Program-made: the position numbers and the translations under genes
Notes under the pieces: model-generated
What the model saw: only the letters and a program-made list of their open reading frames with translations
The model's database searches: none
Told to the model about the DNA's origin: nothing
Part shown: positions 12,064 to 39,090 of the stretch, in pieces
Layout: each line of letters opens with the position of its first letter
Numbering within the stretch: position 1 is the first letter of the stretch
NCBI GenBank assembly: GCA_965222605.1
Contig: OZ244960.1
Coordinates: 2,304,001-2,368,000 of the forward strand
DNA length: 64,000 bases
Source of the DNA: Candidatus Latescibacterota bacterium
Lineage (GTDB): Bacteria > Latescibacterota > UBA2968
Reading direction: 5' to 3'

Positions 12064-15000
12064 CTAAGTGGCAACGACAGGAACCTTTCCGAGGACGGTT
12101 ATCGCAATGCGCAAGCATTCACAACCGGCACCTGGGCGCGGGTCACATCGATCGGAATCGGGATTGGAGATGAAGTCGATGACGACTTCGAGGTCACGTT
12201 GCACGAGGAGCGCGAGGACGGGGAAGACTATCCTGGCGACAGACTGAAAACTCTGGAGCACCCCTCGAGCATCACGCCGAATTCGGTCAATGTGTTCACC
12301 GTTCCCGATGGCGGCATCGTGCTGGAGGGATCGAAAACGTACTTCGTGCAGGTCAAAACGACATCGAGCGACAGGGTAGCCGTTTCCGTAACCGATACCG
12401 ATTCCGACGGCAACGACGAAGACGCCGGGGGCGCTAAGAATTGGACCATCGATAATGGTTCGTGGATAAACAGTCCTTTGGCCGGTAGTTGGCAAGGCAG
12501 TAATCAGTCGACGCGAATCGACATCAAGGGGCAGGTGCTCCTGGCCACGCCCGGGAACGTGACCGCGCGGGCCGTGGCGCCGATGCGGGTCACGCTCGAA
12601 TGGGACAGGACCTTGCCGTCTCTAACAGGCCCAATCGATCGCGACGACGGCTACAGGATCGAATGGTCCCCCGACGGCAGCACGTCGTGGACATCGCTGG
12701 TCAACTACACGAACCAGCACGGGACGTTCGAAATCTGGTGCGTGTGCTACCCCACGAAATACAACGACGACACCATCACGCCCGGCACCACGCGCTACTA
12801 CCGGATCAAGGCCGTTGACGACGACGAGGAGAGCGCCTGGTCCGAGGTGGTCAGCGCCACGACGCCGGGGCTGGTGGACTCCGAGGAACTGGTGGGTTCC
12901 GACGGAGGACAGATCGAGTTTGGCGCGGTGGTTTCGGAACTCGACGCGCTCAACGATCAGAAGGTGTTCCGAGTCGATCTGAAGGCGAGCGAGCAATACC
13001 GGTTCATGATCCGCGGGAAGGCGCCGAAGCACCGGGTGATCGTGACCGATCCGGGCGGCACGGAGATCGAGAACTTCGTGCTGGAATCGGGCAACGGTCT
13101 CAAACCGAGAATCACGGCGCAGAGCGCAGGCGAACACCAGGTCAAGATCTCGCATGGCGGGGGTTTCAGCACCTGGAGCGGGGGCCTGAACGCGGGATGG
13201 TTCCAGTTCCAGCTCGTGCCGGTGAGCGACCCGGCGGTGGGTACGCTGCGTCTGCCAACCCCTTCCGCCTTAAGTGCGGTACTGAACACCTACGGCGACG
13301 TTGACCGGGCCGAAATCGCAGTGCAGCCGGGCAAGGCGTATGGCGTCCGGGTCCGGGGCCGCGAGACGAATAACGTCACGGCCGCGACGCCGCGGATCAA
13401 GCGCGCAAATCCGCCGTCGAAGTACACCGATCACCACATGGGCAAGCCGTGGGTGGACGGCGTGACCAAGTCGGAGATCTGCGCAGAACACGGCCAGTCG
13501 AGCAGAGACTGCGAAGAATTCCAGGCCTTCGTCATCGACCTGCGTGGACTTACCGGGGCGGAGCAGACGTTTCAGATCTACGTCGCTCCGACGGCGCGCC
13601 CCGACACGCGGCCGTACCGTGTGGGCACCTACAGGGTTGAACTCAAGGAGCTTTTGCCCAGTCAACTGCAGGGCGTGCGGATGCCGCTGCGGGCGTGGTT
13701 CGCGTCGCCGCCAGATCAGCACGACGGGTCGAAGGCGATCAAGGTCCGGGTGGCGTTCAGCGAGGCGCCTGAGAACGTGGGCGCGGACGGCGTGGAAGTC
13801 GAGGGCGGCGAAGTGACGTCGGTGCGCCCCGTAGGCGGCAATGCGCCGGGCGGCGCAGGGAAACGCTCGGTGGGCGGCCAGGACGGGGAGGTCGTGTGGG
13901 AGATCGAGATCGAGCCGGACTCGGACGGTGACGTGACGGTGTCGCTGGCGGCGTGGCGCCCGTGCGACGAGACGGGCGCGATCTGCACGGCGGACGGGCG
14001 GTCGCTGTCGCAGGACATCTCGACGACGGTGCGGGGTCTGGACGAGGGTCCGGCGGAGCTGACGGCGTCGTTCGAGGGCGTGCCGTCGGAGCATGACGGG
14101 CAGACGGCGTTCACGCTCAGGATGGCGTTCAGCGAGCCGCTCAGCAGGATGAACGGCCAGCGGTTGCGGGAGGACGTCGTGGCGGTGACCGGGGGCCGGG
14201 CGACGAAGGCCAGCCGGGTGAACAGGCGCAGGGATCTGTGGCAGCTAACGGTCGAGCCGGACTCGGACGGTGACGTGACGGTGACGCTCGCGGCCGGGGC
14301 GGCGTGCGGCACCCCGGCCGCGATCTGCACGGCTGACGGACGGCCGTTGTCGGTGAGCATCTCGACGGCGGTGCGGGGTCCGGCGGCAGATGAGCAAGAG
14401 TCGCCCGGAACCGGCCAGGATCAGGATCTCGGGCAGAGCGTCTCGGAGGGCGACACAGACCTGCCCAACGACAATTCCACCCCCGGACGGGTCGCAGTTG
14501 GTGGCTCGGTCACGGGCACCATCGGGATCCCTAAGGATCAGGACAGGTTCGCCGTCGATCTCCAAGCGGGGCGCACCTACCAGTTCGACCTGACGGGCAG
14601 CCCGGGCGGGGGCGACACGCTTCGCGACACCTATTTCCGGGCGATCTACAACAGCGAGGGACGCTACCAGTCCGGCAGCTACAACGACGACTTCGGGGGC
14701 AGCCGTGATAGCCGCGTGACGTTCACGCCAACGCAGAGCGGGACCTATTACGCGCGGGTATCGGGCGACCGGAACGAGACGGGGACCTACACGTTGTCGG
14801 TGACCGACATCACAGGCCCGGCGTCCAAGCCGACGGTCGCGTCCGAGCCGCCGGGCCTGGCGCCCAACGCGCCCAACCCCTTCAACCCCAGCACCGTCAT
14901 CTCCTATCGCCTGAACGCAGACGGACCGGTGCGCCTGGAGATCTACAACCTCCTCGGGCAGCGCATACGCACCCTGGTGGACGAGGTGCAGGCCGCCGGT

Positions 15001-25494: not shown

Positions 25495-26808
25495 CTATGG
25501 CGGGCAAACCTGCAAGTCGCTCTTGATGGTTAAGTTAGGGATTCTATCTACAACAAGCGGTATGCATCCGGTCAGTTTGTTGCCAATGAGAGTCAAGTGC
25601 GTCAAATTTTCAAGATTGCCCAATTCAGGTGGGATAGTACCACTCAACTGGTTATGATTGAGAAGCAAATGCGTCAGATTTCCAAGGCTGCCTAACTCAG
25701 TTGGAATGCCGCCGCTCAACTGGTTATGATTGAGGGACAATATTTTCAGTTTCGCAAGGCTACTCAGTTCAAGTGGAATGCTTCCAGTCAACAGGTTGTT
25801 ATTGAGGGTCAACATTGTCAGATTCGCAAGGTTCCCCAATTCGGATGGGATGCTACCGGACAACAGGTTGTGATTAAGAGTCAACATTGTCAGATTTGTA
25901 AGATTGCCTAACTCAGATGGGATATTCCCGGTCAACAGGTTGTCAGAGAGGGCCAATAGGGTCAGCTTGACAAGGCTGCTCAGTTCAGACGGGATACTGC
26001 CGATCAGTTGGTTGCTCTCAAGAACCAGTCCCTTCAGGTTAGCAAGACCACATAATTCAAGTGGTATGCCGCCGATTAACTGGTTATCAGAAAGGGCCAA
26101 TGCCGTCAGACTGGCGAGGCTACCCAACTCAGGTGGGATAGTACCACTCAACTGGTTATTATCGAGGAATAAATGCGTCAGATTTGCAAGACGACTCAGT
26201 TCAAGTGGTATCGTACCTGTCAACCGGTTGTTGGAGAGAATTAACCCCGTTAGCCTGGCAAGGCTACCCAACTCGGGTGGAATACTGCCGGTCAACTGGT
26301 TTTTCTGGAGGGCTAATCCCGTCAGGCTGGCAAGATTAGTAAGTTCAAGTGGGATAGTACCGGTCAACTGGTTGTTGGCGAGGGTCAGTTTCTTCAAATT
26401 TGCAAGGTTGCCCAACTCAGGCGGGATGTCGCCGGTCAACTGGTTGTTGTGAAGGAGCAACCTCTCCAGCCTGGTAAGATTGCCCAATTCAGGCGGAATG
26501 CTGCCGGTCAGACCCTTATCATTTAGCTCCAATGCCTGGATGCGTAACGGCGTACCTGCAACGATAACACCTTCCCATTGTGCAATATCAGTACTATCGC
26601 TCCAGTTTAGCGTCGCCTTACCAGTTAACGTGTCTCTAACGGCCAATAGCAGGGCACAATCCTTAACCAGATCCGGATTGCTCTGAGTATTCGGCACTGT
26701 GATATCAATGGCCTGAAGCGGTTGAATTAAAAGAACAAATAATGGGATTGTACAGGCTATGGCCTGTGCCAAACGGAGAAGCAAAGCAAAGGATAGAAAC
26801 TGGCACAT
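25495..26808 (-). CDS. Secreted plant-specific-class LRR protein
   Basis: 13 repeats of 24 aa, LxGxIPxELxxLxxLxxLxLxxNx, after an N-cap LNW...WEGV. Confidence 0.9.
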   Translation of the reverse strand: MCQFLSFALLLRLAQAIACTIPLFVLLIQPLQAIDITVPNTQSNPDLVKDCALLLAVRDTLTGKATLNWSDSTDIAQWEGVIVAGTPLRIQALELNDKGLTGSIPPELGNLTRLERLLLHNNQLTGDIPPELGNLANLKKLTLANNQLTGTIPLELTNLASLTGLALQKNQLTGSIPPELGSLARLTGLILSNNRLTGTIPLELSRLANLTHLFLDNNQLSGTIPPELGSLASLTALALSDNQLIGGIPLELCGLANLKGLVLESNQLIGSIPSELSSLVKLTLLALSDNLLTGNIPSELGNLTNLTMLTLNHNLLSGSIPSELGNLANLTMLTLNNNLLTGSIPLELSSLAKLKILSLNHNQLSGGIPTELGSLGNLTHLLLNHNQLSGTIPPELGNLENLTHLTLIGNKLTGCIPLVVDRIPNLTIKSDLQVCPP

Positions 26809-26822
26809 GGTTTCTCTCCTCT

Positions 26823-28883
26823 TTATTGAGCGTTCATTAGCCTGGAGAGCAATTTATCTGCTTCAGCCTTTTCTATGCGTTTTCCATTGACTTCAGAGAC
26901 CAGTTTGATTGCAGTCCAGGCAGGAGCGTAGCCCCCTCTCAATTCTACGGATTTGCGAAAACTTTCAAGGGACTCACTGACTTCTCCAATAGAAAATTGA
27001 ACAATCCCAAGCCAATAGTAAATCATATAATTCTTGGCCCCACCATTTGGAAACAGCGTTATTGCTTTGTTGAGGTATTCACGCGCACTTTTTTTATCTC
27101 CATCAGAGAAATAACTCAAAGCAAGCACCAAATGTGCTGTTTGATATTTGCCATCTGCCAAGTTGATGGCCTTCTGAGACAGTTCTTTTGCTTTCTTGTA
27201 TTTGTACTTTCTATCTGCTATACGTGCCAGACTCATCCATCCAACAGGATCATCTCCACGCTGTTGAATCGCCTGTTGAATCACCTGTTCAGCTTTAGTC
27301 AGTTTCCCCATTCTGATATACACATCTGCCAACAATATTTTGAGAAAATAGGGTGTGTCGAGTTTCAAAAATCGATCAAAGTAATTTGACGCCGCAACGA
27401 ACTGTTCCGACTTAAAACGGCCATATCCCGCCAATAAGAGTGACAACGGATTTGCCCTATTATTTGGAACCAGAGATATGTCTTGTTCTCGTTGTTTGGG
27501 GAGCACGAGAAAGATACCGTTTCTTCCTCGCTTCCAATATTCTTGAAAGTCGGCCAGAGGGAGTTTGTGCAATTTATGGATCGATGGGTCATTGACAATA
27601 ATGACATCGCGCTGATAATCAATCCCAACAACGATTACAGTATGACTCAGGTCTGGGTCTTGATCGGCTATCAAAGCAACAGGTGGACATCCTGACTTGA
27701 GAGATTCTTCTATTTGCTCTAAATCCCAATTCAGATAGTGAATAGACAGTTCGGGAAATGCCTCTGATAGTGCGTAAAGTGCTGACAGATTATCCTCAAG
27801 CCGGTCTTCCAGCGTCAACCAATCTTCGGCCTGATTTTCAGCACCGTCCCAATATCTCATCACAGATAAAACTGAGGCTTTAAGGCAAGTGACTCCTCGC
27901 CCTTGAGCGTAAAATGGCACTTGAGAAACAAATAGACGTTCACCGCGCTTGTCCTGATTCAGATTCTCAAGGGCGTGAGTTGCATAATCAATATCTGTAT
28001 TAGTTGTGGCGTTTTTCTTCAGCATATTAAAATAAAATTTAGAACTATCAACTTGACCTATTTCATAAAAAGTTTCAGCTATCATAAGAAGTGTATCTTT
28101 ATCAGGATGTTGCCTTTTGTTTCCGAGTTGGTCAATGTAAATGCTTTGTTTTAAGTAGGGGAGCGCGTTTTCAAACTGTTCTAAAAAAAAGATCGTCTCT
28201 CCTTTTCTTCGAACGGCCTGACGATTTTCTTCAACCTGATTTAGGATCGCAAGTGCTTGCTCAAAAAATCCCGCTTTTAAGTTTAACTCTGCAAGCACGA
28301 TGCGATTTTGGATATCTTCAGGCCTATTCTTCAATGCGTTCTCTAATAGCTCAATCGCTTTTCGATATAATTTTAGTCCATTATAAGTTGCTACAAGATT
28401 TATTTTTATTTGTGCATTATCCGGATCAATTTCCAATCCTCTTTCTCCAATTTCCCGTGCCAGTGCCCACCTCTGTTGTTTTGCGTATATTCCCGAAAGA
28501 TTGCGATAAACACCTGGCATGTGCAAGCCCAGGTCTATAGCTCGTTCAAGTCCTTTTGCTGCTGCTTCGTAATTATTCTGAAAAAAAGCAACGGTGCCTA
28601 AGCCGTAATACGCTTCTGCAAACAAACTGTCACAAGAAATAGCTGTTGCAAAATGTCTTTGAGCTAAATCCAATTGTCTTAAAATGCCAAAACTTTTCCC
28701 AATCAGAGTATGGGCCTGAGCAGAACAAGAGTCTGCTTTGAGAACCTCTTCTGCTGCCTGGATACAGCTTTGATAATCTTTGTTCGCATAAAAAGTCTCT
28801 GCCTGGCGCAACAACTCACTACCATCAGAAAATCCAGGGAATAAAAAAATTAAAATCAACAGGCATTTTGATAGGCCGTTCAT
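26823..28883 (-). CDS. TPR-repeat protein with central C39-like cysteine peptidase domain
   Basis: Signal-like N-terminus; TPRs on both sides of VPFYAQ...TC...SVMRYW...HTVIVVG...NDP. Confidence 0.8.
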   Translation of the reverse strand: MNGLSKCLLILIFLFPGFSDGSELLRQAETFYANKDYQSCIQAAEEVLKADSCSAQAHTLIGKSFGILRQLDLAQRHFATAISCDSLFAEAYYGLGTVAFFQNNYEAAAKGLERAIDLGLHMPGVYRNLSGIYAKQQRWALAREIGERGLEIDPDNAQIKINLVATYNGLKLYRKAIELLENALKNRPEDIQNRIVLAELNLKAGFFEQALAILNQVEENRQAVRRKGETIFFLEQFENALPYLKQSIYIDQLGNKRQHPDKDTLLMIAETFYEIGQVDSSKFYFNMLKKNATTNTDIDYATHALENLNQDKRGERLFVSQVPFYAQGRGVTCLKASVLSVMRYWDGAENQAEDWLTLEDRLEDNLSALYALSEAFPELSIHYLNWDLEQIEESLKSGCPPVALIADQDPDLSHTVIVVGIDYQRDVIIVNDPSIHKLHKLPLADFQEYWKRGRNGIFLVLPKQREQDISLVPNNRANPLSLLLAGYGRFKSEQFVAASNYFDRFLKLDTPYFLKILLADVYIRMGKLTKAEQVIQQAIQQRGDDPVGWMSLARIADRKYKYKKAKELSQKAINLADGKYQTAHLVLALSYFSDGDKKSAREYLNKAITLFPNGGAKNYMIYYWLGIVQFSIGEVSESLESFRKSVELRGGYAPAWTAIKLVSEVNGKRIEKAEADKLLSRLMNAQ

Positions 28884-29227: not shown

Positions 29228-29893
29228 TTACTGAGAGGCTATCCAAAATCTACATCCCGCAATAAAGTCCAATGTGCCTGTTATCTTTTCGGAAACATCT
29301 TCTCGTATTCCTCTAAAATGCACAGGTTGAAAACGGATTTCAGTAAAAAAATAGACCTCTTTGTCTTTAATCAAAGCGAATGTACTACCTATCCCAAACA
29401 CTCCGCCAAAATGTAGCTTTGGAAACGCGTCCTGATCATCTTCAGGACAAAAATGGAAGATGCCCAGTCCCACGTTTAGATACGGTCCAAATGGCGCATT
29501 CTTTTCATAAAAGTTACACCTCAATTCAACGAGAAATGAATTTAACCAACCGCCAGAATCAAAATTGCGATATTCTTGTGTATTCTGTACCTCTCTTTGA
29601 GACATGCGAAAAAAAGAGCTGTGCAAAGACAACTCAAATGGTTCGTACCCAACAAACAACTCACTGTTTACCGCGGGTCCCATCTGAGTTCTAACGAGAT
29701 TGAAAGAGGTGTGCCCGTGCTTTAGACCTTTGGCATTCCAACCTTCGACATCCCATTCGGCGTGGTTTATCACTGGAAATGAAGGACCAAACCCAAGCCC
29801 AAATCCAGCATAGATTTCTTGACAATCATTCCTGGAGGGCCAAAAGGACAATATCAAGATTATTATAAGACGGTATTTCATACTCATCATCAC
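29228..29893 (-). CDS. Putative small outer-membrane beta-barrel protein
   Basis: Signal peptide; alternating strands PYLNVGLG, FGGVFGIG, FFTEIRF, terminal AGCRFW. Confidence 0.65.
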   Translation of the reverse strand: MMMSMKYRLIIILILSFWPSRNDCQEIYAGFGLGFGPSFPVINHAEWDVEGWNAKGLKHGHTSFNLVRTQMGPAVNSELFVGYEPFELSLHSSFFRMSQREVQNTQEYRNFDSGGWLNSFLVELRCNFYEKNAPFGPYLNVGLGIFHFCPEDDQDAFPKLHFGGVFGIGSTFALIKDKEVYFFTEIRFQPVHFRGIREDVSEKITGTLDFIAGCRFWIASQ

Positions 29894-30034: not shown

Positions 30035-31090
30035 TCAAAGAGCCTTCAAAACATTCTTCAGAATACACGCCTCCCTTTGAGAAAGATCATCCATCACCGT
30101 GATGATCTTATTGATACGCCCCACATCCCACACTCTCTTGACCTTCAATAACGCTCGTAACTTAAGCATCATCAGATGAATCTGATGCGCCTTCTGTTCA
30201 ACCTCCTTGTACGCCTGATGAAACTGGTCTGACGGACGCAAATACCCGTGCTCCTCCAGATAAGAAAGCCTGTTTAACATACAACACTTGTGCTCCCACA
30301 GCGTGAACAGATGCCGCCGATCCCACAACCGAGGATGGACAAACAAATGAGTAAAGTAATCCCTCAAGAGCTTATACGTCGCCATCCCAAAGACGCCTTC
30401 AACTGGCTTACGCAACATCCGGTAGTGGACAGACGGATTCTCAGAATGGACATAGGCTTGCAACTGGTCAATAACAGCGTCAATGTCAAATTCATAGACA
30501 CCGTCCTCGTTATACTCAAAAAGCTCCACCCGGTACGATCTGCGTTTCTCGGGATCAATCCAGCGAAATGCCTCTTCAAAATCTGAATACGCAACCCTTG
30601 AAACAGCGTAATTTCGTGCCCGATCAAATCCCAGAGTCTCAAGCGTTTCTGTATGATCATCGTATCCGAATACCAGAATAGCATGTGGATTATGTATTTT
30701 CTCATAAAATGGCGTATGCGGCAGGAAATACTCATCGGCGATCAACTGGACATAGAAGCCCTCATCAATTTGATCGCGAATAAACGGCACAATCTGGTGA
30801 TATACTTTAGCGATTGATCGCCTCGGAACGGTGTAGATAGACAGCCACGGTGGGGAGTATGCGCCCTGAAAATAGAAGTTGAATCGGATGTTATGTTTGC
30901 TCTCCTTTAACAGGTCAACGGCGAACAGTTGTATGTAATTGCAGAAGAACCAGGGAATATACGCATCGTGAAGTGACATAATCGAAAGCCGATAGGCATG
31001 GCGGGGATAGCCGTGTATGGGGGGGGATGGTTGGATGGGAAGCGATCTTTTCATACTACGCATCTCGTATGGGGCTGTCGCATTTTTCAA
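30035..31090 (-). CDS. BtrH-like protein (papain-like fold, putative carrier-protein-dependent acyltransferase)
   Basis: DEYFLP...HNPHAILVFGYD motif resembling BtrH N-terminal domain proteins; adjacent to an ACP gene. Confidence 0.55.
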   Translation of the reverse strand: MKNATAPYEMRSMKRSLPIQPSPPIHGYPRHAYRLSIMSLHDAYIPWFFCNYIQLFAVDLLKESKHNIRFNFYFQGAYSPPWLSIYTVPRRSIAKVYHQIVPFIRDQIDEGFYVQLIADEYFLPHTPFYEKIHNPHAILVFGYDDHTETLETLGFDRARNYAVSRVAYSDFEEAFRWIDPEKRRSYRVELFEYNEDGVYEFDIDAVIDQLQAYVHSENPSVHYRMLRKPVEGVFGMATYKLLRDYFTHLFVHPRLWDRRHLFTLWEHKCCMLNRLSYLEEHGYLRPSDQFHQAYKEVEQKAHQIHLMMLKLRALLKVKRVWDVGRINKIITVMDDLSQREACILKNVLKAL

Positions 31091-31094
31091 ATTT

Positions 31095-31364
31095 TCAGGT
31101 AGTCAAAACGCACTCACGCACAGACCGGATATAGTCTTCAATCGTCTGCACACTTTTAAAAACTTCGGCACTCAGGTCTTCATCAGAGATTTCAAAGCCA
31201 AATTCATCTTCTATGCCTACAACGAGTTCTACCATTGCCATTGAGTTGAGACCCATTTCTCCACCAAAAAGTATGTCTGAATCTCCTATTTCTTCAGGCT
31301 CAATTTCAAGATTTAATGCACGCACAATTGTCTGTTTTATCTGTCTTTTTAGATCATTATCCAT
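31095..31364 (-). CDS. Acyl/peptidyl carrier protein (89 aa)
   Basis: GGAGG RBS; GLNSMAMVELVVGIEDEFGFEISDEDL..F.SV..I; Ser present at the phosphopantetheine position. Confidence 0.85.
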   Translation of the reverse strand: MDNDLKRQIKQTIVRALNLEIEPEEIGDSDILFGGEMGLNSMAMVELVVGIEDEFGFEISDEDLSAEVFKSVQTIEDYIRSVRECVLTT

Positions 31365-33297
31365 ACACCCCTCCTGATTGCTCATCTGCAAAGTACCTGA
31401 TGATGACGTCAACCATCCTCTGCTGTCCCTCCTCTGAGACAATTTCTACGGCTGGAATCTCAAATTTATCCTCCAAATAGGCCAATTTTTCTTTAATTTC
31501 TTCTTTTGACATTTGACGCGGACTAATCAGTGTTCGACCATAAGCTGCTCGAATGTGTTTTTCTTTATCACTCATTGCCAGACATAACACGGAGCCTTTG
31601 GTAATTGCCTTGAGCGTGTTCATAGTATCGCGTATATACTCGCCGTCATCAACGCTGTTCACGACCAATATGTTGGCATCGGGTTTTGTACCCAGCATAA
31701 AAGCAAGCGTTGAAAGCGTATGATTTCCCGGCTCATGGATATCATAAGGGATACTCCCCGACTGTGCGCCGACAAGCATTAAATCTGGTTTCTTATTGGC
31801 ACAGACCTCGCGCATTTTGAAATCCAGATAGGGCGCATGAAACTGTATCGGAAATTGCAGTGGAGAGGCGTATCCCGTTGGAAATGCCACATCCATTCCA
31901 AATAACTGAGAATGGTGTTCGGTACCGATTTGCCCAACCTTGTATCCCTCTTTTGTCAGCTTTGACCTCAAAGCGAGTTGAACAGTAAACTTACCTTGTT
32001 GAGCACTCGTGCCAAAAACACCGATAACTGGCACATCAACGGCTGGATAATCGTGGAGCTGAAGTGCTTTAAGCAGGTCGTTTTGATGAATGTCGGGCGA
32101 ATAAATCCAGAGGTTCTTTTTACGTGCCTTTTCGATCAGATCTCTTAGATCCTTTTGGTATATGGACAAAAAGCTGAATACATTTAAGTTGGCATCAATG
32201 GCTTTCTCAATACTCTCGCGCAGGACATTCTTTTTGGTGATTCGACTCAGTTCATCTACATAACCCAGAATGAGCGTATCAGCCTCTTTCAATATCTCTT
32301 GAAATCGTGGCTGAATCCGTATGCCAACGGGCGGTATGCCTATCGCTTCACCAGCATCTTTCCCAACATAACCTTTGGCAATGGGATCAGCGATGCCCAC
32401 AATTTCAAAATTTAATAATTCCCTGAAACGCACCAGGCTATGTATTTCTTTGTTATAGGGATAAATAGCTGCTCTTTTGATATTGTTTGGATCAAAGGAT
32501 TGGGACGTTTGGGGAGTATGCACGCGAATCTTGCGACCTGATGGGATTTTTTCATGCACTTCTCGATTGGCATTCACTTCCAATATGTTTCTAATCCCAT
32601 TCAGATTGGCTTTGGGAAAGGCTTGTCTGATTAACGCGATAATGCCCGTGATGTGGGGCGCGGCAAAGCTACTGCCTTCAACAATATGCTCTCGCCCACC
32701 CGCCCAGAGAACGCGCTGAGTTGTCCCTGGTGCGATACATTCAATAGACTCTCCTGCACGAAACAGATAATTGTAACGCCCTTTTATATCCCCCGCTTTC
32801 ACACCGATCACATTGGAGAAATAGGCGGGAAAACTCTCCTGCCCTGAATTGTGTTCGGCAGCGACTATTGCGATACCCTTTTTCGTTGCTACCTGACATA
32901 TATCCAACAGAGCATGCTTGACTTGCGCGTCCGTCGTTCCAAGGCTCAGGTTAATGATATCGACGTTCTGATCAATTGCCCAGCGAATGGACTCAAGGAG
33001 AATTTTCTGTTCTACAATTAAAGATTGATCGAAGATTTTTATAGCGTATAGCTCTGTACCAGGAGCCTTCTTTTTTACAATACTCGCAACCGCCGTGCCA
33101 TGACCAGATGTGTCTCGATAGTCTTGAGATGTATGGACGCTGCCCACAGAAAGCTCAAAACAAATTCCTGCGGTCACATGTTGCAACATTGCATGCGAAC
33201 GATCAATCCCGCTATCAACGATTGCAACCTTGACACCCTCTCCGTTTAGATCATGGAAATTGCATTTGTATTTCATGGTTAGACCACTGTTGTCCAC
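31357..33297 (-). CDS. S8 subtilisin-like peptidase fused to a DUF1611/TIGR04066-like P-loop domain
   Basis: Triad VAIVDSG / GHGT / GSSFAAPH; C-terminal half PVIGVFGTSAQQGKFTVQLAL...GYKVGQIGTE...LFG. Confidence 0.8.
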   Translation of the reverse strand: MDNSGLTMKYKCNFHDLNGEGVKVAIVDSGIDRSHAMLQHVTAGICFELSVGSVHTSQDYRDTSGHGTAVASIVKKKAPGTELYAIKIFDQSLIVEQKILLESIRWAIDQNVDIINLSLGTTDAQVKHALLDICQVATKKGIAIVAAEHNSGQESFPAYFSNVIGVKAGDIKGRYNYLFRAGESIECIAPGTTQRVLWAGGREHIVEGSSFAAPHITGIIALIRQAFPKANLNGIRNILEVNANREVHEKIPSGRKIRVHTPQTSQSFDPNNIKRAAIYPYNKEIHSLVRFRELLNFEIVGIADPIAKGYVGKDAGEAIGIPPVGIRIQPRFQEILKEADTLILGYVDELSRITKKNVLRESIEKAIDANLNVFSFLSIYQKDLRDLIEKARKKNLWIYSPDIHQNDLLKALQLHDYPAVDVPVIGVFGTSAQQGKFTVQLALRSKLTKEGYKVGQIGTEHHSQLFGMDVAFPTGYASPLQFPIQFHAPYLDFKMREVCANKKPDLMLVGAQSGSIPYDIHEPGNHTLSTLAFMLGTKPDANILVVNSVDDGEYIRDTMNTLKAITKGSVLCLAMSDKEKHIRAAYGRTLISPRQMSKEEIKEKLAYLEDKFEIPAVEIVSEEGQQRMVDVIIRYFADEQSGGVYG

Positions 33298-33315: not shown

Positions 33316-33636
33316 TCACTCTGCATCAGGCCGCTGACTTGGACCTTTCACCACAATCGGACTGATAAACATTTTTATTAAAATATCTAACAAAACATGG
33401 CCTGCTATAAGAAAATGCAATAGAGTTACTTCAATGCTAATCCATAAGTAGAGTAATAAGTAAAGTAATAAAAGAAATATGAGGATCGAAATACCGCGTT
33501 TCCAGTAATCAACGCTCCAAATCGTGCCACAATTTTTGCAGGGATACTTGATAAGACCGGCACGCAGTTTGCGCCACCACCCAACGGGATGTCCACACTT
33601 TGGGCAGGTATAAAGGTTTTTTATATTTATTGGCAT
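33316..33636 (-). CDS. Small CxxC-x18-CxxC zinc-ribbon protein with two TM helices
   Basis: CPKC...CKNC followed by two hydrophobic segments; paralog of 33655..33960. Confidence 0.8.
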   Translation of the reverse strand: MPINIKNLYTCPKCGHPVGWWRKLRAGLIKYPCKNCGTIWSVDYWKRGISILIFLLLLYLLLYLWISIEVTLLHFLIAGHVLLDILIKMFISPIVVKGPSQRPDAE

Positions 33637-33654: not shown

Positions 33655-33960
33655 TCACTCTGCATCACGCCGCTGTGGTTCCTGCTTCTCAACAACCGGA
33701 TCGACATATCCTGCAACGAACAATCCTGAAGCAAAGATTACCAAAAAGACCCAAAAATTCACATGAGGCTTAAGCCATAATGCGGTTGAAAAGGTAAATA
33801 TAGAAACTAAAATCAGGCGTCTCACAGAACCAAAACCCAAAGGCGTACCGCAATTCTTGCAGGGCCATATACTGAAGATGTTAGCACTCAACTTACGTCG
33901 CCATCCAACGGAATGGCCACATTTTGGACAGGTGTAAATGTTTTTGATGATTCTTGGCAT
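33655..33960 (-). CDS. Small CxxC-x19-CxxC zinc-ribbon protein with two TM helices
   Basis: GGAGG RBS; CPKC...WPCKNC; C-terminus QRRDAE versus QRPDAE in its neighbour. Confidence 0.8.
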   Translation of the reverse strand: MPRIIKNIYTCPKCGHSVGWRRKLSANIFSIWPCKNCGTPLGFGSVRRLILVSIFTFSTALWLKPHVNFWVFLVIFASGLFVAGYVDPVVEKQEPQRRDAE

Positions 33961-34064: not shown

Positions 34065-34460
34065 CTATTCACCATATGCTTGTACGATTGGGTCGTCGTA
34101 GTCAATGTCACTACTCCAATCTATAAATCCTTCCATAATAGCCTCACTTGCATCACTGGCCAACTCTCTTATGGCTTCTCCTGCTTGTGCCTCGGCAGCG
34201 GCCTGATCAAATGTAGTTTCAAGGACACCTTGCAAACCATCTACCATTTCATCATGGTAATAATGGTCAACGATAGGCATAGCTGAAGCCGCATAAGGCC
34301 CAACATAAGGAATTGTTGCTACTGTTGCTGTAGCACCCCAAAAAGTCCAAAAATATATTTCCTCCATATCCATCAACCCATCCATCTTTGTTTCACCCTC
34401 ATAAGCCTCTACGGGCATAATGGTCTCGTAATGCATCTTTCTTTTCACCAGCTTTTGCAT
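34065..34460 (-). CDS. Putative RiPP/bacteriocin precursor (131 aa) with CLI_3235-like leader
   Basis: GGAGG RBS before ATG 34460; leader MQKLVKRKMHYETIMPVEAY; acidic Cys-free remainder with a hydrophobic segment; lies among exporter and protease genes. Confidence 0.7.
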   Translation of the reverse strand: MQKLVKRKMHYETIMPVEAYEGETKMDGLMDMEEIYFWTFWGATATVATIPYVGPYAASAMPIVDHYYHDEMVDGLQGVLETTFDQAAAEAQAGEAIRELASDASEAIMEGFIDWSSDIDYDDPIVQAYGE

Positions 34461-34543
34461 GTGATCCTCCAATGGTATAAAAATTAGAAATCGATGAATG
34501 TTTCCATTCACCATGAACGAAGCACCGTGTAGTGATCTCTCAT

Positions 34544-34879
34544 TTACCCCCTTTCCTTGTCAAGAGGTGCTTTTCGACTATCAGCGTCAGAATTTTGGTC
34601 TGAAGATTGCACAATTTTAACGCGCAGCAATGAAAGAATGATAAAAACGCCAACTGGCAGAAGACAATAGACAGGAAAGCTCCAATCCTTGACCCAGAAT
34701 TCAAAAAATAACCAGAAAGCTACAAATACCGGTAGTAGCAAGAACGATCTTCTCAGATCATCTTTAAGCATGATGCCACATTTCTTACAGGGCCAGGTGA
34801 GACCAGGTTTCCAGGTCCACCATTTATACCCCTCCCACGGGCGGTTATATCCACAATTTGGGCACTTCGCTTTGAACAT
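34544..34879 (-). CDS. Small CxxC-x21-CxxC zinc-ribbon protein with two TM helices
   Basis: CPNC...KWWTWKP...WPCKKC; near-duplicate of 34913..35233. Confidence 0.8.
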   Translation of the reverse strand: MFKAKCPNCGYNRPWEGYKWWTWKPGLTWPCKKCGIMLKDDLRRSFLLLPVFVAFWLFFEFWVKDWSFPVYCLLPVGVFIILSLLRVKIVQSSDQNSDADSRKAPLDKERG

Positions 34880-34912: not shown

Positions 34913-35233
34913 TTAAACGGCACTTTGGGGGTTATCAGCGTCAGAATTTTGGTCTGAAGATTGCACAATTTTAACGCGCTTCAATGAAAGAATGATAAAA
35001 ACACCAACCGGTAGGAGACAATAGACAAGAAGGCTCCAATCCTTGACCCAGAATTGAAAAAATAACAAGAAGGCCACATATATGAATAGCAGCAAGAACG
35101 ATCTTCTCAGATCATTTTTAAGCAGGATGCCACATTTCTTACAGGGCCAGGTGGAATTAGGTTTCCAGGTCCACCATTTATCTCTTTCCCAGGGGCTTTC
35201 ATATTCACAGTTTGGGCATTTTGCTTTAAGCAT
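34913..35233 (-). CDS. Small CxxC-x21-CxxC zinc-ribbon protein with two TM helices
   Basis: MLKAKCPNC...WPCKKC...VKIVQSSDQNSDAD; starts immediately after the ABC exporter stop. Confidence 0.8.
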   Translation of the reverse strand: MLKAKCPNCEYESPWERDKWWTWKPNSTWPCKKCGILLKNDLRRSFLLLFIYVAFLLFFQFWVKDWSLLVYCLLPVGVFIILSLKRVKIVQSSDQNSDADNPQSAV

Positions 35234-35234
35234 A

Positions 35235-36950
35235 TTAAATCCTCGCGGCTCGCTCCTGGAGCATAGAATAAACACCATCTTGCAGCATCAAAACTTCGTG
35301 GCTACCTTCTTCCGCAATTCTTCCCTGATCGATGACAACGATTTTGTCTGCACGCCGGATGGTTGACAGACGATGGGCAATGACGATCACCGTCCTTTGT
35401 TTGCAAATTTCTTTCATCGCTTCCTGAATATAAAACTCAGATTCGTTATCCAGTGCCGCAGTAGGTTCATCCAGGATCAAGATGGGCGTGTTCTGCAATA
35501 ACACCCGTGCAAGCGCGACCCTCTGCTTCTGACCCTCTGAAAGTTGCGCTCCCTGCTCACCGATGATCGTGTGATAACCACTGGGTAGCTTCGTGACAAA
35601 ATCGTGGATATAGGCTGCCCGGGTCGCGGCTTCGACATCGATCATGGATATAGGCTTTCCAAACGTCAGATTCTCCAAAATACTCCCCTGAAACAGCGCA
35701 CTACCTTGCATCACAAAGCCAATATTTTGGCGCAGAGAATTGAGACGATATTGCCTGATATCGACCCCATCAATCAAGACTTGACCATCCACTGGATCGT
35801 AGAACCTCGGGATGAGCTTCGCCAGAGTAGATTTGCCCGATCCGCTTCTTCCAACAATGGCGACGGTTTGATCGACACCGATCTCGAGATTGATCTCGTT
35901 CAACACCACCCTTTCGGGTTGATATGCAAAACTGACATCTCGAAACTCTATCCTTCCGTGGACCTCGTTGAGTTCAGCCAACTGCGGTTCATCGCGTATA
36001 TCAGGCGTGATATTATAGACTTCAAAAAAGCGGTCCGTATGAACCAGTGTAGATTCAATGCGCCGCAACAGACCAATAAGACTTTTAATAGGTCCATACA
36101 AATACCCCACATAGCCCGTAAAAGCCATATAACTCCCCAACGTCAAATTGTCAGATAGCACCTCGTGCCATCCGTAGAAACCGTAGGCAAGTGTTCCACC
36201 CGTCTTAACAATGGTGCTGACATATCCCGTTGTGCCCGAAAAAAGCGACACTTTCATTCTGAGATTTGCAACATTGATGAACAATCCCTGCAATTTCTGA
36301 AAAAATGAGGTCTCCAACCCCAAAGACTGTACTGTTCTAATCGAAGAGATTGACTCGTAATTTTTGGCCGATAACTCTGCTGAGCGTTCTGCAACTTCCC
36401 TCGTATATTTGCGGATAAACCGTCTCGAAATCAAAACCAAAAGCGTATCAAAGGGCAAGACCGTGAGGCTGATCAGGGCCAGTTTCCAATTGATAAAGAA
36501 CAGAATAGGCGGAAAGATCACGAGTTGGAGCGAATTGATAATCAGTGTGTTAATCAAACCAATAACACTGGCAATTGAACTCCGCATATCCCTGAACCGA
36601 GATAATATTTCACCCGTCTCTCGATTGTCAAAAAAACTGAAATCCAACGTTTGGATATGTTTGTAAAAACGCGCTTGAAAATCATACCCCATCCGGACGC
36701 CAACACACTGACCAAAATACCCACTGATAAATCTCATCCCGCCCACACCCAACGACATCAGCATGCCCAATAACAGAAGGAAATTCAACAGAGAGAAATC
36801 TTTGTGCGGATATACATCATCGATCATTATTTTTGTGAAATAAGGCCCTGGTATCTGAAACAGCATAAACAAAATGCCAACACAAAGCGACTGAATGATA
36901 TATCGCCAATAAGGTCGAAGCATCTTAACAATAGTGAATATTTGCGTCAA
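35235..36950 (-). CDS. ABC exporter (TMD+NBD) of peptide/type I secretion type, no N-terminal C39 domain
   Basis: FFDNRETGEILSRF, GRSGSGKST, LSEGQKQR, ILDEPT, IAHRLST. Confidence 0.93.
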   Translation of the reverse strand: MTQIFTIVKMLRPYWRYIIQSLCVGILFMLFQIPGPYFTKIMIDDVYPHKDFSLLNFLLLLGMLMSLGVGGMRFISGYFGQCVGVRMGYDFQARFYKHIQTLDFSFFDNRETGEILSRFRDMRSSIASVIGLINTLIINSLQLVIFPPILFFINWKLALISLTVLPFDTLLVLISRRFIRKYTREVAERSAELSAKNYESISSIRTVQSLGLETSFFQKLQGLFINVANLRMKVSLFSGTTGYVSTIVKTGGTLAYGFYGWHEVLSDNLTLGSYMAFTGYVGYLYGPIKSLIGLLRRIESTLVHTDRFFEVYNITPDIRDEPQLAELNEVHGRIEFRDVSFAYQPERVVLNEINLEIGVDQTVAIVGRSGSGKSTLAKLIPRFYDPVDGQVLIDGVDIRQYRLNSLRQNIGFVMQGSALFQGSILENLTFGKPISMIDVEAATRAAYIHDFVTKLPSGYHTIIGEQGAQLSEGQKQRVALARVLLQNTPILILDEPTAALDNESEFYIQEAMKEICKQRTVIVIAHRLSTIRRADKIVVIDQGRIAEEGSHEVLMLQDGVYSMLQERAARI

Positions 36951-36981: not shown

Positions 36982-38160
36982 TTAAAAAACCAAAGGATTT
37001 TGCTTATCAACGATGCCAAAAGCATCTTTTATCTTTTTCCACGCAATCTTCCATAAGAAATTTCTTTCAATAATGATCTTTGCATCTAACCTCATGCCAT
37101 AAGCCACGGGATAAATCTGATCGCCACTGCGAACAAAGGGATCATCGATCAATATCTTCACCGGGTATAATGTCAGAGCCGTTGCATTTGGGGGCAAAAC
37201 TTGATTCCGGCTGGGCAATTCACTAACGCTACCACTGAAAATTTTGTAACTCATATGTGGAAACGCATGGATGTACAACTTGACATCTTGACCCATTTCA
37301 ATTTTTGAAATATCCACCTCTTGCACAAAAACCCTTGCCTGCCATTCATTTAACTGCGCCAATTCCAATATCGGACTGCCAACTAAAACCCGATCTCCTT
37401 CGATTGTTTCAATATCTGAGGTCAGCACAATGCCCGAGATTGGGGAAATGATAACGGTTTTTCTTATCTGTTCCTGAATCCAATCGCGTTCTTGTTGGAA
37501 TTTGTCACCGACCAATTTCAAAGTTTGGATTTCTTTCTCTCTGACAACCAGAGCATCAAGCTCAATTTCCAGATAGGTCATGCGTTGCAGGATGCGATTG
37601 AGATTGTTTTCTTGAAGTTTTACAGGCAAAAGCGTCTCAAGAGGTCGTGTCCGTTCCTTTCTCTCTTTGAGATATTTTTGATACAATTGTTGCTCTCGTA
37701 AAATCTGTTCAAGCCGAAGACCACCCGCTTCGTGTTCAAGTCGCGTCTGATCAAGACTCGATTCTATTCTTTGCCTATCAAAAAATAATGTCTCTCTGAG
37801 TTCCTCTATCTGCTGTTGATTGATTGCGATCTCTTTTTCAATTTTCGCGGCCTCTTTTCTCCAATCTGAAGCATCGAGAACAAAAAGTGTATCCCCTTTT
37901 GCGACCTGCTGACCAGCGTGAATAAGCACCTTCTTTATCGTCCCTATGGTCTCTGATTTGACAAATTTTTTCTCAACGGGTTCAACGTGACCAGAAGCCT
38001 CAACACTGATTTCCATTTCGACATCCCAGCCTAAAATCACAATCCCTGCAATAAGCAGAATACTCGATGCTATAATAGACAGAATGAAGAATCTTATAAA
38101 CTCAAAGCCCCTTAGCTTGATCTCATGATCAGATTCAGGCTGTTTGGTGGCTAAAGCCAT
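36982..38160 (-). CDS. HlyD-family membrane fusion protein
   Basis: N-terminal TM helix, GQQVAKGDTLFVLD, long coiled coil, IISPISGIV, GMRLDAKII. Confidence 0.9.
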   Translation of the reverse strand: MALATKQPESDHEIKLRGFEFIRFFILSIIASSILLIAGIVILGWDVEMEISVEASGHVEPVEKKFVKSETIGTIKKVLIHAGQQVAKGDTLFVLDASDWRKEAAKIEKEIAINQQQIEELRETLFFDRQRIESSLDQTRLEHEAGGLRLEQILREQQLYQKYLKERKERTRPLETLLPVKLQENNLNRILQRMTYLEIELDALVVREKEIQTLKLVGDKFQQERDWIQEQIRKTVIISPISGIVLTSDIETIEGDRVLVGSPILELAQLNEWQARVFVQEVDISKIEMGQDVKLYIHAFPHMSYKIFSGSVSELPSRNQVLPPNATALTLYPVKILIDDPFVRSGDQIYPVAYGMRLDAKIIIERNFLWKIAWKKIKDAFGIVDKQNPLVF

Positions 38161-38253: not shown

Positions 38254-39090
38254 CTAAATTTCTCCGCGCATAAATTTTTTGCGGTACTGGGTAGGAGAAA
38301 TGCCATGTATCCTCTTGAAATCCTCACTGAAACGATTTGATCCACGAAACCCACACATGCGTGCAATTTCATACATAAACAGTGATGATCCCGTTAAAAA
38401 ATGCTCTGCCTGCGCTATTCTGACCTCCCTCAGTTTTTCACGGAAGGTCTTGTCAAAATATTTTCTAAACAGCGCGTGACCATGCGATAGCGAGAGATCA
38501 AAATGGCGCGTGAGATCTTCAAATTTCAGGTCTGGTTTTCTGTAACGCTCCTCCAAAAATGATTCCAATGCCTCTTGCGAAACCTTCTCTCGGCCGACGT
38601 TCAACGGCTGTTGAAAGGATTTGGGCAGTGAACGGGATGCTTCACGGACCCGCGACACATTGTATCCCACTTCATTCAGTAGAATACAGTTTTTGACCTC
38701 TGCCAAAAATTTGTCCTTCACAATCGGTTTATCCAGTACGCTCACAGCACCTGCTGTGAGTATTTCTTTCGTTACTTCCATGAGCAAAACGCTCCCCATC
38801 ATCAGAATATTTGTCTGAATTTTCTCTGCTGCAACGCGCTCCAAAAGTGCGACCCCATCAAGACCTGCTATATCTTTTTCAGCGATAGCGAGAGCAATCT
38901 TCTCTCGTCTCAAAATTTTAAGTCCTTCTTTTGCATTTTCCGCTGTACACACGTCATAAGGTTCATCGCTCAAGAATCCCACAAGGGTCGATAGAACGCG
39001 GGGGTCGGGATCTATAATCAGAATTTTCTGTTTGTTCAGATCAGGACGCGAATGATCGGCACGAGGAGGAACTGTCATATATTTTCGCAA
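38254..39090 (-). CDS. Atypical response regulator: receiver domain plus AraC-type HTH
   Basis: KILIIDPD...LAIAE (Glu at the usual phospho-Asp)...DKPI; C-terminal EIARMCGF...FSEDFKRIHGISPTQYRK. Confidence 0.85.
   Translation of the reverse strand: MRKYMTVPPRADHSRPDLNKQKILIIDPDPRVLSTLVGFLSDEPYDVCTAENAKEGLKILRREKIALAIAEKDIAGLDGVALLERVAAEKIQTNILMMGSVLLMEVTKEILTAGAVSVLDKPIVKDKFLAEVKNCILLNEVGYNVSRVREASRSLPKSFQQPLNVGREKVSQEALESFLEERYRKPDLKFEDLTRHFDLSLSHGHALFRKYFDKTFREKLREVRIAQAEHFLTGSSLFMYEIARMCGFRGSNRFSEDFKRIHGISPTQYRKKFMRGEI

Follow-up and report, generated by a model that had tools for sequence, protein, structure and literature searches.

A cysteine-free, protein-sized cargo behind a CLI_3235-like leader in Candidatus Latescibacterota, encoded beside a predicted protease, carrier and ligase module

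Can a leader peptide that looks like those of CLI_3235-family precursors, which carry short, Cys-rich cores, be used on a protein-sized cargo, and what would such a cargo do? The question is raised by a gene in a 64,000-nucleotide (nt) stretch of the genome of a Candidatus Latescibacterota bacterium (assembly GCA_965222605.1, contig OZ244960.1, positions 2,304,001 to 2,368,000; hereafter the window, with positions counted from its first letter). A first-pass annotation of this DNA had suggested that a CLI_3235-type leader was re-used here as a processing and export tag on a membrane-active protein. Our own reading, to which we give about the same chance of being right as of being wrong, is that the locus encodes a Latescibacterota-type relative of CLI_3235/CcpM without a radical S-adenosylmethionine (SAM) enzyme, and that its product would be a leader-tagged, exported, membrane-attacking, bacteriocin-like protein cargo. 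The gene and its two parts are:

34065-34460, minus strand: precursor open reading frame (ORF), stop codon included; 131 aa, translation MQKLVKRKMHYETIMPVEAYEGETKMDGLMDMEEIYFWTFWGATATVATIPYVGPYAASAMPIVDHYYHDEMVDGLQGVLETTFDQAAAEAQAGEAIRELASDASEAIMEGFIDWSSDIDYDDPIVQAYGE
34401-34460, minus strand: leader, residues 1-20 (MQKLVKRKMHYETIMPVEAY), delimited by the conservation boundary among 42 aligned homologues
34065-34400, minus strand: cargo, residues 21-131 and stop codon; acidic N-terminal part, hydrophobic stretch, HYYHDE, Ala-rich acidic helices and the C-terminus IDWSSDIDYDDPIVQAYGE

What the first-pass annotation had described at this place was found again. A GGAGG (34470-34466) lies 5 nt 5' of the ATG, the leader is basic (4 K/R, calculated pI 9.4) and the following 111 residues contain no Cys and 24 D/E versus 2 K/R (calculated pI approximately 4). 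Residues 35-64 form a hydrophobic stretch rich in aromatic residues, Gly and Ala (IYFWTFWGATATVATIPYVGPYAASAMPIV); an Ala-rich part (DQAAAEAQAGEAIRELASDASEAI) is present as well, a His/Tyr-rich HYYHDE motif lies within the cargo and the C-terminus is Asp-rich (DIDYDDP). A further in-frame ATG upstream, at 34514, falls within a conserved hairpin of the 5' untranslated region (UTR) and is probably not the start of the precursor. Models of Pfam and NCBIfam did not match the precursor at E ≤ 1.

Of 67 candidates from a word-indexed search with the precursor, 56 proteins had E ≤ 0.01, and most of these are full-length (121-157 aa); an exhaustive search of 1.84 billion cluster representatives gave 19 matches at E ≤ 0.001. 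Therefore, the ORF is not a product of chance: the precursor gene is real and belongs to a family of proteins of approximately 125-140 aa. The few homologues with a named source come from metagenome bins of Gemmatimonadetes and Poribacteria. Three giant proteins that the exhaustive search also returned (P0058, P0061 and P0064) owe their match to a repeated '...DGSLTGSIDWSSNLDG...' unit alone and were not taken as relatives, and three proteins of 58-73 aa with the same leader (P0052, P0063 and P0065) look truncated or frame-shifted on short contigs and were not taken as new cargos. A scan of metagenome contigs with the family alignment produced 447 pattern matches, none of which was confirmed.

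The family alignment, which comprises 42 of the 56 homologues, separates the protein into two parts. MQKL is the start in 40 rows; of the two others, one is extended upstream and one lacks the first 14 residues. Residues 1-17 are nearly invariant, with P16, E18, A19, Y20 and E23 as the only strictly invariant positions, and mean pairwise identity amounted to 85.5% at positions 1-21 versus 29% for the remainder. E23, the third residue of the cargo, is its sole invariant column. In the DNA of six loci the leader codons differ synonymously at V5, E12, P16, V17 and A19, which argues that the constraint acts on the leader peptide. In the body it is the architecture that is kept and not the sequence: a Trp-bearing acidic stretch, a hydrophobic segment of Gly, Ala and aromatic residues, an H-x-E motif, acidic helices and a C-terminal ending. 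Cys-free bodies are found in 25 of the 42 members.

The precursor gene lies within an operon-like cluster encoded entirely on the minus strand, between the second and the third of four genes for small Zn-ribbon membrane proteins. In the order of transcription the other genes are:

38254-39090, minus strand: regulator with a response-regulator receiver and an AraC-type helix-turn-helix domain (NCBIfam/Pfam)
36982-38160, minus strand: HlyD-family periplasmic adaptor (NCBIfam/Pfam)
35235-36950, minus strand: ABC exporter, permease and ATPase, 571 aa (ABC_membrane and ABC_tran only)
34913-35233, minus strand: Zn-ribbon (CxxC...CxxC) small membrane protein, paralogue 1 (TIGR04104, 23.5 bits)
34544-34879, minus strand: Zn-ribbon membrane protein, paralogue 2 (77% identical to paralogue 1)
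33655-33960, minus strand: Zn-ribbon membrane protein, paralogue 3 (TIGR04104, 23.2 bits)
33316-33636, minus strand: Zn-ribbon membrane protein, paralogue 4 (TIGR04104, 32 bits)
31357-33297, minus strand: fusion of an S8 protease with a TIGR04066/DUF1611-like domain, 646 aa (Pfam/NCBIfam)
31095-31364, minus strand: carrier protein resembling acyl or peptidyl carrier proteins (ACP/PCP; PP-binding, 1.2e-10)
30035-31054, minus strand: papain-fold amide ligase-like protein of BtrH/CcbD/CtaG type (sub-threshold BtrH_N; AlphaFold2 (AF2) and Foldseek)

In the fusion protein the S8 protease makes up the N-terminal half and is followed, from about residue 274 to 646, by a TIGR04066/DUF1611-like domain with Rossmann and P-loop parts (Peptidase_S8 2.5e-31, DUF1611 3.5e-13, DUF1611_N 2.5e-05). 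TIGR04066 was matched over model positions 1-359 of 361 with 146.8 bits (E 8.2e-43; cut-off 200). The nearest named family of the S8 half is QhpE, with 137.7 bits under a cut-off of 165. The S8 triad of D21, H59 and S203 does not vary among 40 fusion homologues, nor does the loop GTS.QQGKFT. Since no signal peptide was seen by eye, the fusion is presumed to be cytoplasmic. When the S8-DUF1611 alignment was co-folded with precursor residues 1-45, scores of 0.14 and 0.00 were obtained (mark 0.32). DgcN, a DUF1611 N-acetyltransferase, was considered and rejected: the literature passages found give dgcN only as a key gene of a D-Glu pathway, and no DgcN model was among the NCBIfam matches. Carrier and fusion genes overlap by 8 nt, the carrier gene beginning before the fusion gene ends. 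The carrier protein keeps the phosphopantetheine serine of the (D/N)S motif (GLNSM), and its best NCBIfam match is the AmcB ACP (55.9 bits); TIGR04069 gave 19.3 bits at a cut-off of 70.

Because its Pfam match was sub-threshold, the ligase-like protein was modelled with AF2 from 31 homologues, giving a mean predicted local distance difference test (pLDDT) of 79.6 and a predicted template modelling (pTM) score of 0.76. A Foldseek search of the PDB with this model placed CcbD, AziU3/U2 and CtaG on top (E approximately 1e-9, probability 1.00, TM 0.50-0.56), with 7yn2 as a CcbD match (E 1.5e-9, TM 0.55) and a CcbD complex with a PCP domain among the matches. Sequence identity to enzymes of the CcbD/CtaG type is 11-13%; His124 and Gly-Tyr-Asp 130-132 are conserved in the homologues. 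A papain fold like that of BtrH, CcbD and CtaG is thereby supported by the predicted model. PDB searches by sequence gave no match for the TIGR04066-like domain and none for the ligase-like protein.

An S8 protease and a ligase next to a precursor with recurring C-terminal endings could also act at that end. We consider it improbable that the chemistry lies there, either as a second S8 cut or transpeptidation (trimming, head-to-tail cyclisation) or as building by the ligase on the body as a scaffold. In its favour, 23 of the 42 family members end in VQxYGE, and (V/L)H (11 members) and GG (about 6) recur. The VQAYGE end of the window protein echoes the leader junction VEAYEGE, an A-Y-(E)-G-E string being found in both, and cyanobactin S8 enzymes cyclise after recognising an AYDG-type follower. 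The resemblance is only four residues long, however, and nothing else indicates cyclisation; the PatA/PatG model matches the S8 domain weakly (34.6 bits), and the VQxYGE motif is neither universal in the family nor present in the other cargo classes of close enzyme relatives.

CLI_3235/CcpM systems are annotated in many genomes. The only product expressed, in the literature found, is SacP23, the structure of which was still undefined. According to its description (PMC10731318), the SacP23 cluster of Paenibacillus polymyxa comprises a CLI_3235-family precursor, a radical SAM protein TIGR04068, TIGR04066, TIGR04069, an S8 protease and an ABC transporter; the precursor has the leader MRKLVKRSTNVGDTIEAF followed by a Cys-rich core, and the N-terminus of mature SacP23 resisted Edman degradation. 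By tblastn of plasmids with the TIGR04066-like domain of the window, annotated TIGR04066 proteins were found on two Clostridium plasmids with 25-31% identity. On plasmid pCLOPA01 of C. pasteurianum an annotated CLI_3235-family precursor (MKLLGKKHVKVMETIEAY, then ACSGVAICNCSG...) adjoins CcpM, TIGR04066, an ACP-related protein and an S8 protease, and an ABC transporter is also in the cluster. CLI_3235/CcpM systems and the window thus both have a TIGR04066 homologue, an S8 protease, a carrier-type protein and an ABC exporter, and it is mainly because of this shared enzyme set that we regard them as related. Besides, the leaders are alike in length (18-20 aa), in the M.KL.K(R/K) start and in the (ET)I..EA(Y/F) end, and 6 of the first 7 residues are the same as in SacP23 when compared by eye. 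A TIGR04068-like radical SAM gene was not found in the window (2.304-2.368 Mb); matches elsewhere in the same genome, at 1.58, 3.98 and 4.74 Mb, are far below cut-off. On a C. tagluense plasmid (NZ_CP077606.1, 8208-9475; locus L105), three identical 67-aa ORFs (MSNFGKKSVYNSTNGIEPRGGCNCG...) alternate with ACP-related genes next to CcpM and TIGR04066. They have no TIGR04065 match and are annotated as hypothetical; they probably represent precursors that have gone unrecognised. Upstream there is an agr-type quorum-sensing set.

To see how widely the arrangement is used, a single genome of each species was searched with a TIGR04066-like domain alignment. Of 122 confirmed matches, the best 80 were retained, which make up 79 loci. 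Candidatus Latescibacterota contributes the majority, often with several loci in one genome, and a few belong to Gemmatimonadota, Poribacteria, KSB1, Cytophagia and a gammaproteobacterial bin. The S8 half was detected in 77 of the 79 loci, a carrier homologue near the fusion gene, mostly directly downstream, in 69 and an ABC exporter in 55. The ligase subfamily of the window was present in 31 loci and a second subfamily in 14; a cluster of ORFs matching the regulator, which weakly resembles QhpR in NCBIfam, was found in 18. No radical SAM family was among the annotated gene clusters occurring in at least 4 of the 79 loci.

Candidate precursors in these loci were collected with a strict leader pattern (M..L.K, 5-16 residues, (I/V/L/M).(A/G/T)(Y/C)(E/S/H/D/Q/G)) applied to ORFs of 35-220 aa; preferences for residues at P1, P2 and P4 among them are partly imposed by the pattern. 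It matched 51 ORFs, 50 on the strand of the enzyme gene (in 39 of the 79 loci) versus 1 on the opposite strand, and in six frames of the window the single match was the precursor gene. A looser pattern was too noisy for counting (79 plus-strand versus 32 minus-strand matches) and served only for spotting the precursors of loci L006/L010 and L040/L045/L046 by eye. The 50 cores are 35-138 aa long, 16 of them Cys-free, and the cargo classes of the related loci comprise short acidic Cys-rich peptides, short hydrophobic peptides in tandem and unrelated families of acidic proteins of 110-140 aa, some of which bear Gly/Ala-rich hydrophobic segments. Because similarly shaped leaders precede very different cargos on the enzyme strand, re-use of the leader as a tag, as the first-pass annotation had supposed, is well supported, also by the conservation of the leader and by the enzyme module; the leader itself is not a TIGR04065 member (see below).

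A FastTree phylogeny of 70 enzyme domains showed that leader type follows enzyme clade. The window falls into a clade of 8 (support 100), six members of which have the MQKL... leader, and the two others, L006 and L010, a different leader, MVKLKKKRPMFYKFTGKIARAY, on another long acidic protein. These two precursors (L006:6544-6936 and L010:6540-6947; MVKLKKKRPMFYKFTGKIARAY|DQEEE...) are accompanied by homologues of two proteins that in the window are encoded directly downstream of the cluster, a tetratricopeptide repeat (TPR) plus C39-like protein (26823-28883) and a 221-aa protein of unassigned family (29228-29893); a pattern search of the window found no precursor of the L006/L010 type. A 437-aa leucine-rich-repeat (LRR) protein with plant-type LRRs (25495-26808, minus strand) also adjoins the cluster and resembles the LRR regions of XopAC/XopAE-type proteins with 118 and 105 bits, far below the cut-offs.

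The genome of the window contains a second S8-DUF1611 system (L089, G000:C1:3974000-3993900), which is 42% identical, has its carrier protein upstream and a 74-aa precursor at 14625-14849 (MKTLTKPVKSRLSSPRIYGYE...). L089 further holds a redoxin-like membrane protein, an FtsX-type permease and a 363-aa ORF, and approximately 4 kb upstream a SPASM-type radical SAM gene with a small ORF of its own (131 bits to TIGR04068, cut-off 500). On Bacillus megaplasmids, as in L106 of a Bacillus sp. plasmid (NZ_CP139484.1, 3856-9656), the fusion and the carrier occur with an MNIO/DUF692 enzyme (BufB-like, 232.8 bits), two 44-aa precursors MKK(A/T)LKKPTKVGKKVEETKVTLYMGELGCGTGC... and a nearby CPBP protease gene; the leader-handling module thus pairs with a third kind of tailoring enzyme. 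The phosphopantetheine serine of the carrier is kept in the window, L089, L004, L005 and the Bacillus plasmid, and replaced in the two clostridial ACP-related proteins examined. Taken together, protease, DUF1611 domain and carrier look like a general leader-handling module that is joined by different tailoring enzymes or by none. In L005 two S8-DUF1611 systems lie side by side (3769 and 9182), and single Latescibacterota genomes can carry at least six such loci; OZ244847.1 gave six.

Among genomes of the phylum, the precursor type of the window (P0001) was found in 9 of 168, all from one genus (8 of its 20 other species), and in none of the other 147. The nine genomes contain ten loci. Zn-ribbon membrane genes are kept in all ten, and an S8-TIGR04066-like gene with at least 80% identity in eight; homologues without maturation genes, which the first-pass annotation had named as evidence against its proposal, are therefore not the rule. 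The remaining two loci, L101 (G080) and L103 (G081), look degraded: in one the S8 part abuts the ligase-like gene, without TIGR04066-like domain or carrier protein, and in the other the precursor is cut down to approximately 48 matching residues.

When the loci were grouped by cargo with simple ad hoc rules, the accompanying genes differed. Short Cys-rich acidic cargos (12 loci) occur with DUF5128 propellers (12), redoxins (8), rhodaneses (7) and RND pumps (7), and with no CPBP/Rce1 protein. Other long cargos (20 loci) occur with CPBP/Rce1-type intramembrane proteases (16), HlyD (15) and GNATs (7). The cargo type of the window (six loci of the grouped set, ten after the genome searches) has Zn-ribbon membrane proteins in the place of CPBP; clear matches to them were found only in loci of this precursor type, with weak matches in L023. 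The four paralogues of the window share CxxC...CxxC followed by hydrophobic segments and score below the TIGR04104 cut-off of 45 (32, 23.5, 23.2 and 13.4 bits). The CPBP/Abi family includes well-known bacteriocin immunity proteins, and it is mainly because of the CPBP/Rce1 genes in sister loci that we read the long-cargo loci as bacteriocin-like and the Zn-ribbon proteins as candidates for immunity.

On this basis the following route can be proposed. The basic 20-residue leader would be recognised in the cytoplasm by the S8-TIGR04066/DUF1611-like fusion, and the S8 domain would cut after Tyr20 (PVEAY|ExxE), a site suggested by the conservation boundary and by the EAY/EAF ends of CLI_3235-family leaders; the invariant Glu at +3 (E23) suggests that recognition spans the cleavage junction. 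The carrier and the CcbD/CtaG-like ligase, possibly together with the P-loop domain, may then put an acyl or aminoacyl group on an amine of the cargo, the new N-terminus being the obvious candidate. Such capping is suggested by the linkage of the two genes, the kept serine and the fold match, and loading of the carrier by the P-loop domain is one possibility. Export of the acidic, Cys-free protein of 111 residues would fall to the ABC/HlyD pair, with either the leader or the conserved C-terminus as guide. Outside the cell the aromatic, Gly/Ala-rich hydrophobic segment would attack the membranes of competitors, and the four Zn-ribbon membrane proteins, found only with this cargo type, would protect the producer.

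Several points weigh against this reading. Toxicity, membrane activity, secretion, the cleavage site, acylation, the export route and immunity are all steps that we infer. The precursor did not match TIGR04065 at E ≤ 1 (34-position model, cut-off 26 bits), nor was it among the matches when its own genome was searched with the model at E ≤ 10; none of 26 other Latescibacterota-type precursors matched either, whereas the pCLOPA01 precursor, used as positive control, scored 29.9 bits. Direct comparison of the leader with that C. pasteurianum member gave 7 of 18 identities and 12 of 18 positives by BLASTP (E 0.041) and 14 columns by hhalign (E 0.055), neither of them significant. The leader is hence not a TIGR04065 member, and the resemblance, real to the eye (M.KL.K+, ETI, EAY), is suggestive but not statistically secure alone. 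The ligase-like protein reaches 27.5 bits with BtrH_N, below the Pfam cut-off of 29.7, and a Cys nucleophile (YNC/YPC) is conserved only in the sister subfamily; in the subfamily of the window a Ser (PLSIL) lies near its position. An enzyme that obviously loads the carrier protein was not found in the cluster. The hydrophobic stretch is only moderately so, its best 19-residue Kyte-Doolittle mean being 1.09 versus a family median of 1.6. A C-terminal type I secretion signal would likewise agree with the C-terminal conservation and with a composition that is acidic and free of Cys; with such a signal, the leader would not be what tags the protein for export.

The cargo itself also gives the reading no footing in a known family, as no recognisable fold or family was found in Pfam, NCBIfam, AF2, ESM Atlas and PDB sequence searches. 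The AF2 model from 42 sequences was unusable (pLDDT 47), and because of this no fold search was made with it. ESM Atlas gave, for residues 21-131, a best score of 0.86 with 140 shared features (GRDA), which is below the level of a lead. In the PDB search with the family profile, designer Kelch proteins matched via a short VEAYDP..W-like string with no single stretch passing, and colicin S4 matched at 25 bits; both were judged to be due to chance or composition.

A last point against the reading concerns the invariance of the leader. The enzymes of L006 and L010 are 92-94% identical to that of the window in the TIGR04066-like domain and yet adjoin a quite different leader, so that enzyme specificity alone does not explain why the leader is invariant. 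Possible explanations are an interaction of the leader with the cargo-specific membrane proteins or recombination of cassettes between the 5' UTR/leader and the conserved 3' end. A far-fetched one is that the invariant N-terminal 20 residues themselves form the product, for instance a signalling peptide, with the variable body as its carrier or follower. It would account for a leader that is far more conserved than the body, and beyond what near-identical enzymes apparently need. However, the body is long, its architecture is conserved over the full length and it co-varies with dedicated membrane proteins, and the active product of CLI_3235 comes from the C-terminal core (PMC10731318).

The product might also pass through the same processing and export and not be a toxin at all, for example a secreted or periplasmic metal- or calcium-binding, matrix or signalling protein comparable to QhpC. 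We think this unlikely, though there is something to be said for it: QhpE is the closest family to the S8 domain and QhpR a weak match of the regulator, the route of QhpC is documented (PMC7876137), the cargo is very acidic with its HYYHDE motif and Asp-rich DIDYDDP C-terminus, and there is no direct sign of toxicity. On the other hand, a cargo with E23 as its one invariant residue and approximately 29% identity behind a fixed leader would be uncommon in a subunit whose partner or cofactor is fixed. The patchy occurrence within one genus, with two decaying copies, and the CPBP-type genes in sister loci likewise argue for the bacteriocin-like protein, and no genes for partner enzymes were found in the cluster with Pfam/NCBIfam. 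Going further than the bacteriocin-like reading itself, fusion, carrier and ligase could form a general 'cut-and-cap' machine that removes the short basic leader and caps the new N-terminus with an acyl or aminoacyl group from the carrier, yielding N-capped peptides and entire proteins of ribosomal origin. The P0001 type would then be the first class of approximately 110-aa, Cys-free products resembling peptides that are synthesised ribosomally and modified post-translationally (RiPPs), a lipidated or capped secreted toxin with Zn-ribbon immunity, and Latescibacterota genomes would hold many cassettes with swappable cargos; for this extended proposal we see only a small chance.

Upstream of the precursor a further element became visible in the DNA alignment of six loci:

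34461-34545, minus strand: conserved 5' UTR

These 85 nt are almost as conserved as the leader. They contain a hairpin GGTGAATG/CATTCACC (GGTGAATG...CATTCA(T/C)C) followed by a U-rich run, and a terminator-like scan matched 34513-34492. A candidate second helix, GATTTCTAAT with ATTGGAGGATC, would cover the GGAGG. RNAalifold predicted 27 pairs with a compensatory change in 1 only, which is weak. The element could serve in attenuation, in processing or stability, or as a switch of translation. A 164-nt contig from a coral metatranscriptome library covers only 34401-34535, that is leader and 5' UTR, and is divergent on both flanks; it is derived from a relative and, as the library may hold DNA, is no proof of expression.

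Literature searches, with supplementary files outside their scope, found no published description of the precursor family, of the Latescibacterota S8-DUF1611 fusion system or of a CLI_3235-type leader on a protein-sized cargo. The leader and the protease/TIGR04066 core also occur without a radical SAM enzyme, paired with a true carrier protein and a papain-fold ligase, and one module serves cargos from 35-residue peptides to acidic proteins of 110-138 residues. If leader removal is indeed coupled to carrier-dependent capping, this would be a new way to modify ribosomal products and would blur the border between RiPPs and post-translationally modified secreted proteins. The locus offers a compact test case of five genes for the roles of TIGR04066/DUF1611 domains and 'ACP-related' proteins, and searches with the leader motif could bring up new secreted effectors in uncultured phyla such as Latescibacterota, Gemmatimonadota and Poribacteria.

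Compared with CLI_3235/CcpM systems, the window differs first in its core, which is acidic, 111 aa long and free of Cys, whereas CLI_3235 cores have approximately 30-40 aa and are Cys-rich; in two members the Cys-clustered cores have 31 aa (after the EAY end) and 42 aa (as predicted by the authors). Further, S8 and TIGR04066 are fused, the serine of the carrier is kept, and a CcbD/CtaG-like ligase, an HlyD adaptor and four Zn-ribbon membrane proteins are added. In the Qhp system, QhpC, a small protein, loses a 28-residue leader to the cytoplasmic S8 protease QhpE and is then exported by an ABC transporter (PMC7876137). That system and the one proposed here would have in common a cytoplasmic subtilisin-like leader protease, a small protein and an ABC exporter without peptidase domain (PMC7876137). 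Unlike in Qhp, the protease scores below the QhpE cut-off and the cargo has no Cys or Trp cross-link sites; genes for QhpA, B, D or G were not found in the window, and its DUF1611-like domain, carrier protein and ligase have no counterpart in the Qhp system. CtaG, BtrH and AsbE are papain-fold enzymes that form amide bonds from donors bound to carrier proteins (PMC12865890). The ligase-like protein resembles them and CcbD in its predicted fold and in the conserved His and Asp of the triad, and a carrier gene lies directly upstream; it differs in that the Cys nucleophile is not conserved and the presumed acceptor is a ribosomal protein and not a small molecule. Class I lantibiotics of the LanT/LanP type use a separate S8 leader protease together with an ABC exporter lacking a protease domain. 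The window is similar to these and to class II bacteriocins with ABC/HlyD export in having a separate S8 protease, a protease-less ABC protein and small membrane proteins beside the structural gene. Unlike them it has no lanthionine enzymes, double-glycine leader or C39 domain, and its cargo has several times their length and a strongly acidic composition. The leader ends in EAY, and the ABC protein consists of ABC_membrane and ABC_tran, lacks an N-terminal C39 peptidase domain and aligns with HlyB/bacteriocin-type ABC models only from about position 137-150 on. With its acidic, Cys-free sequence, its conserved C-terminus and the ABC/HlyD pair next door, the cargo would be compatible with a type I secretion substrate.

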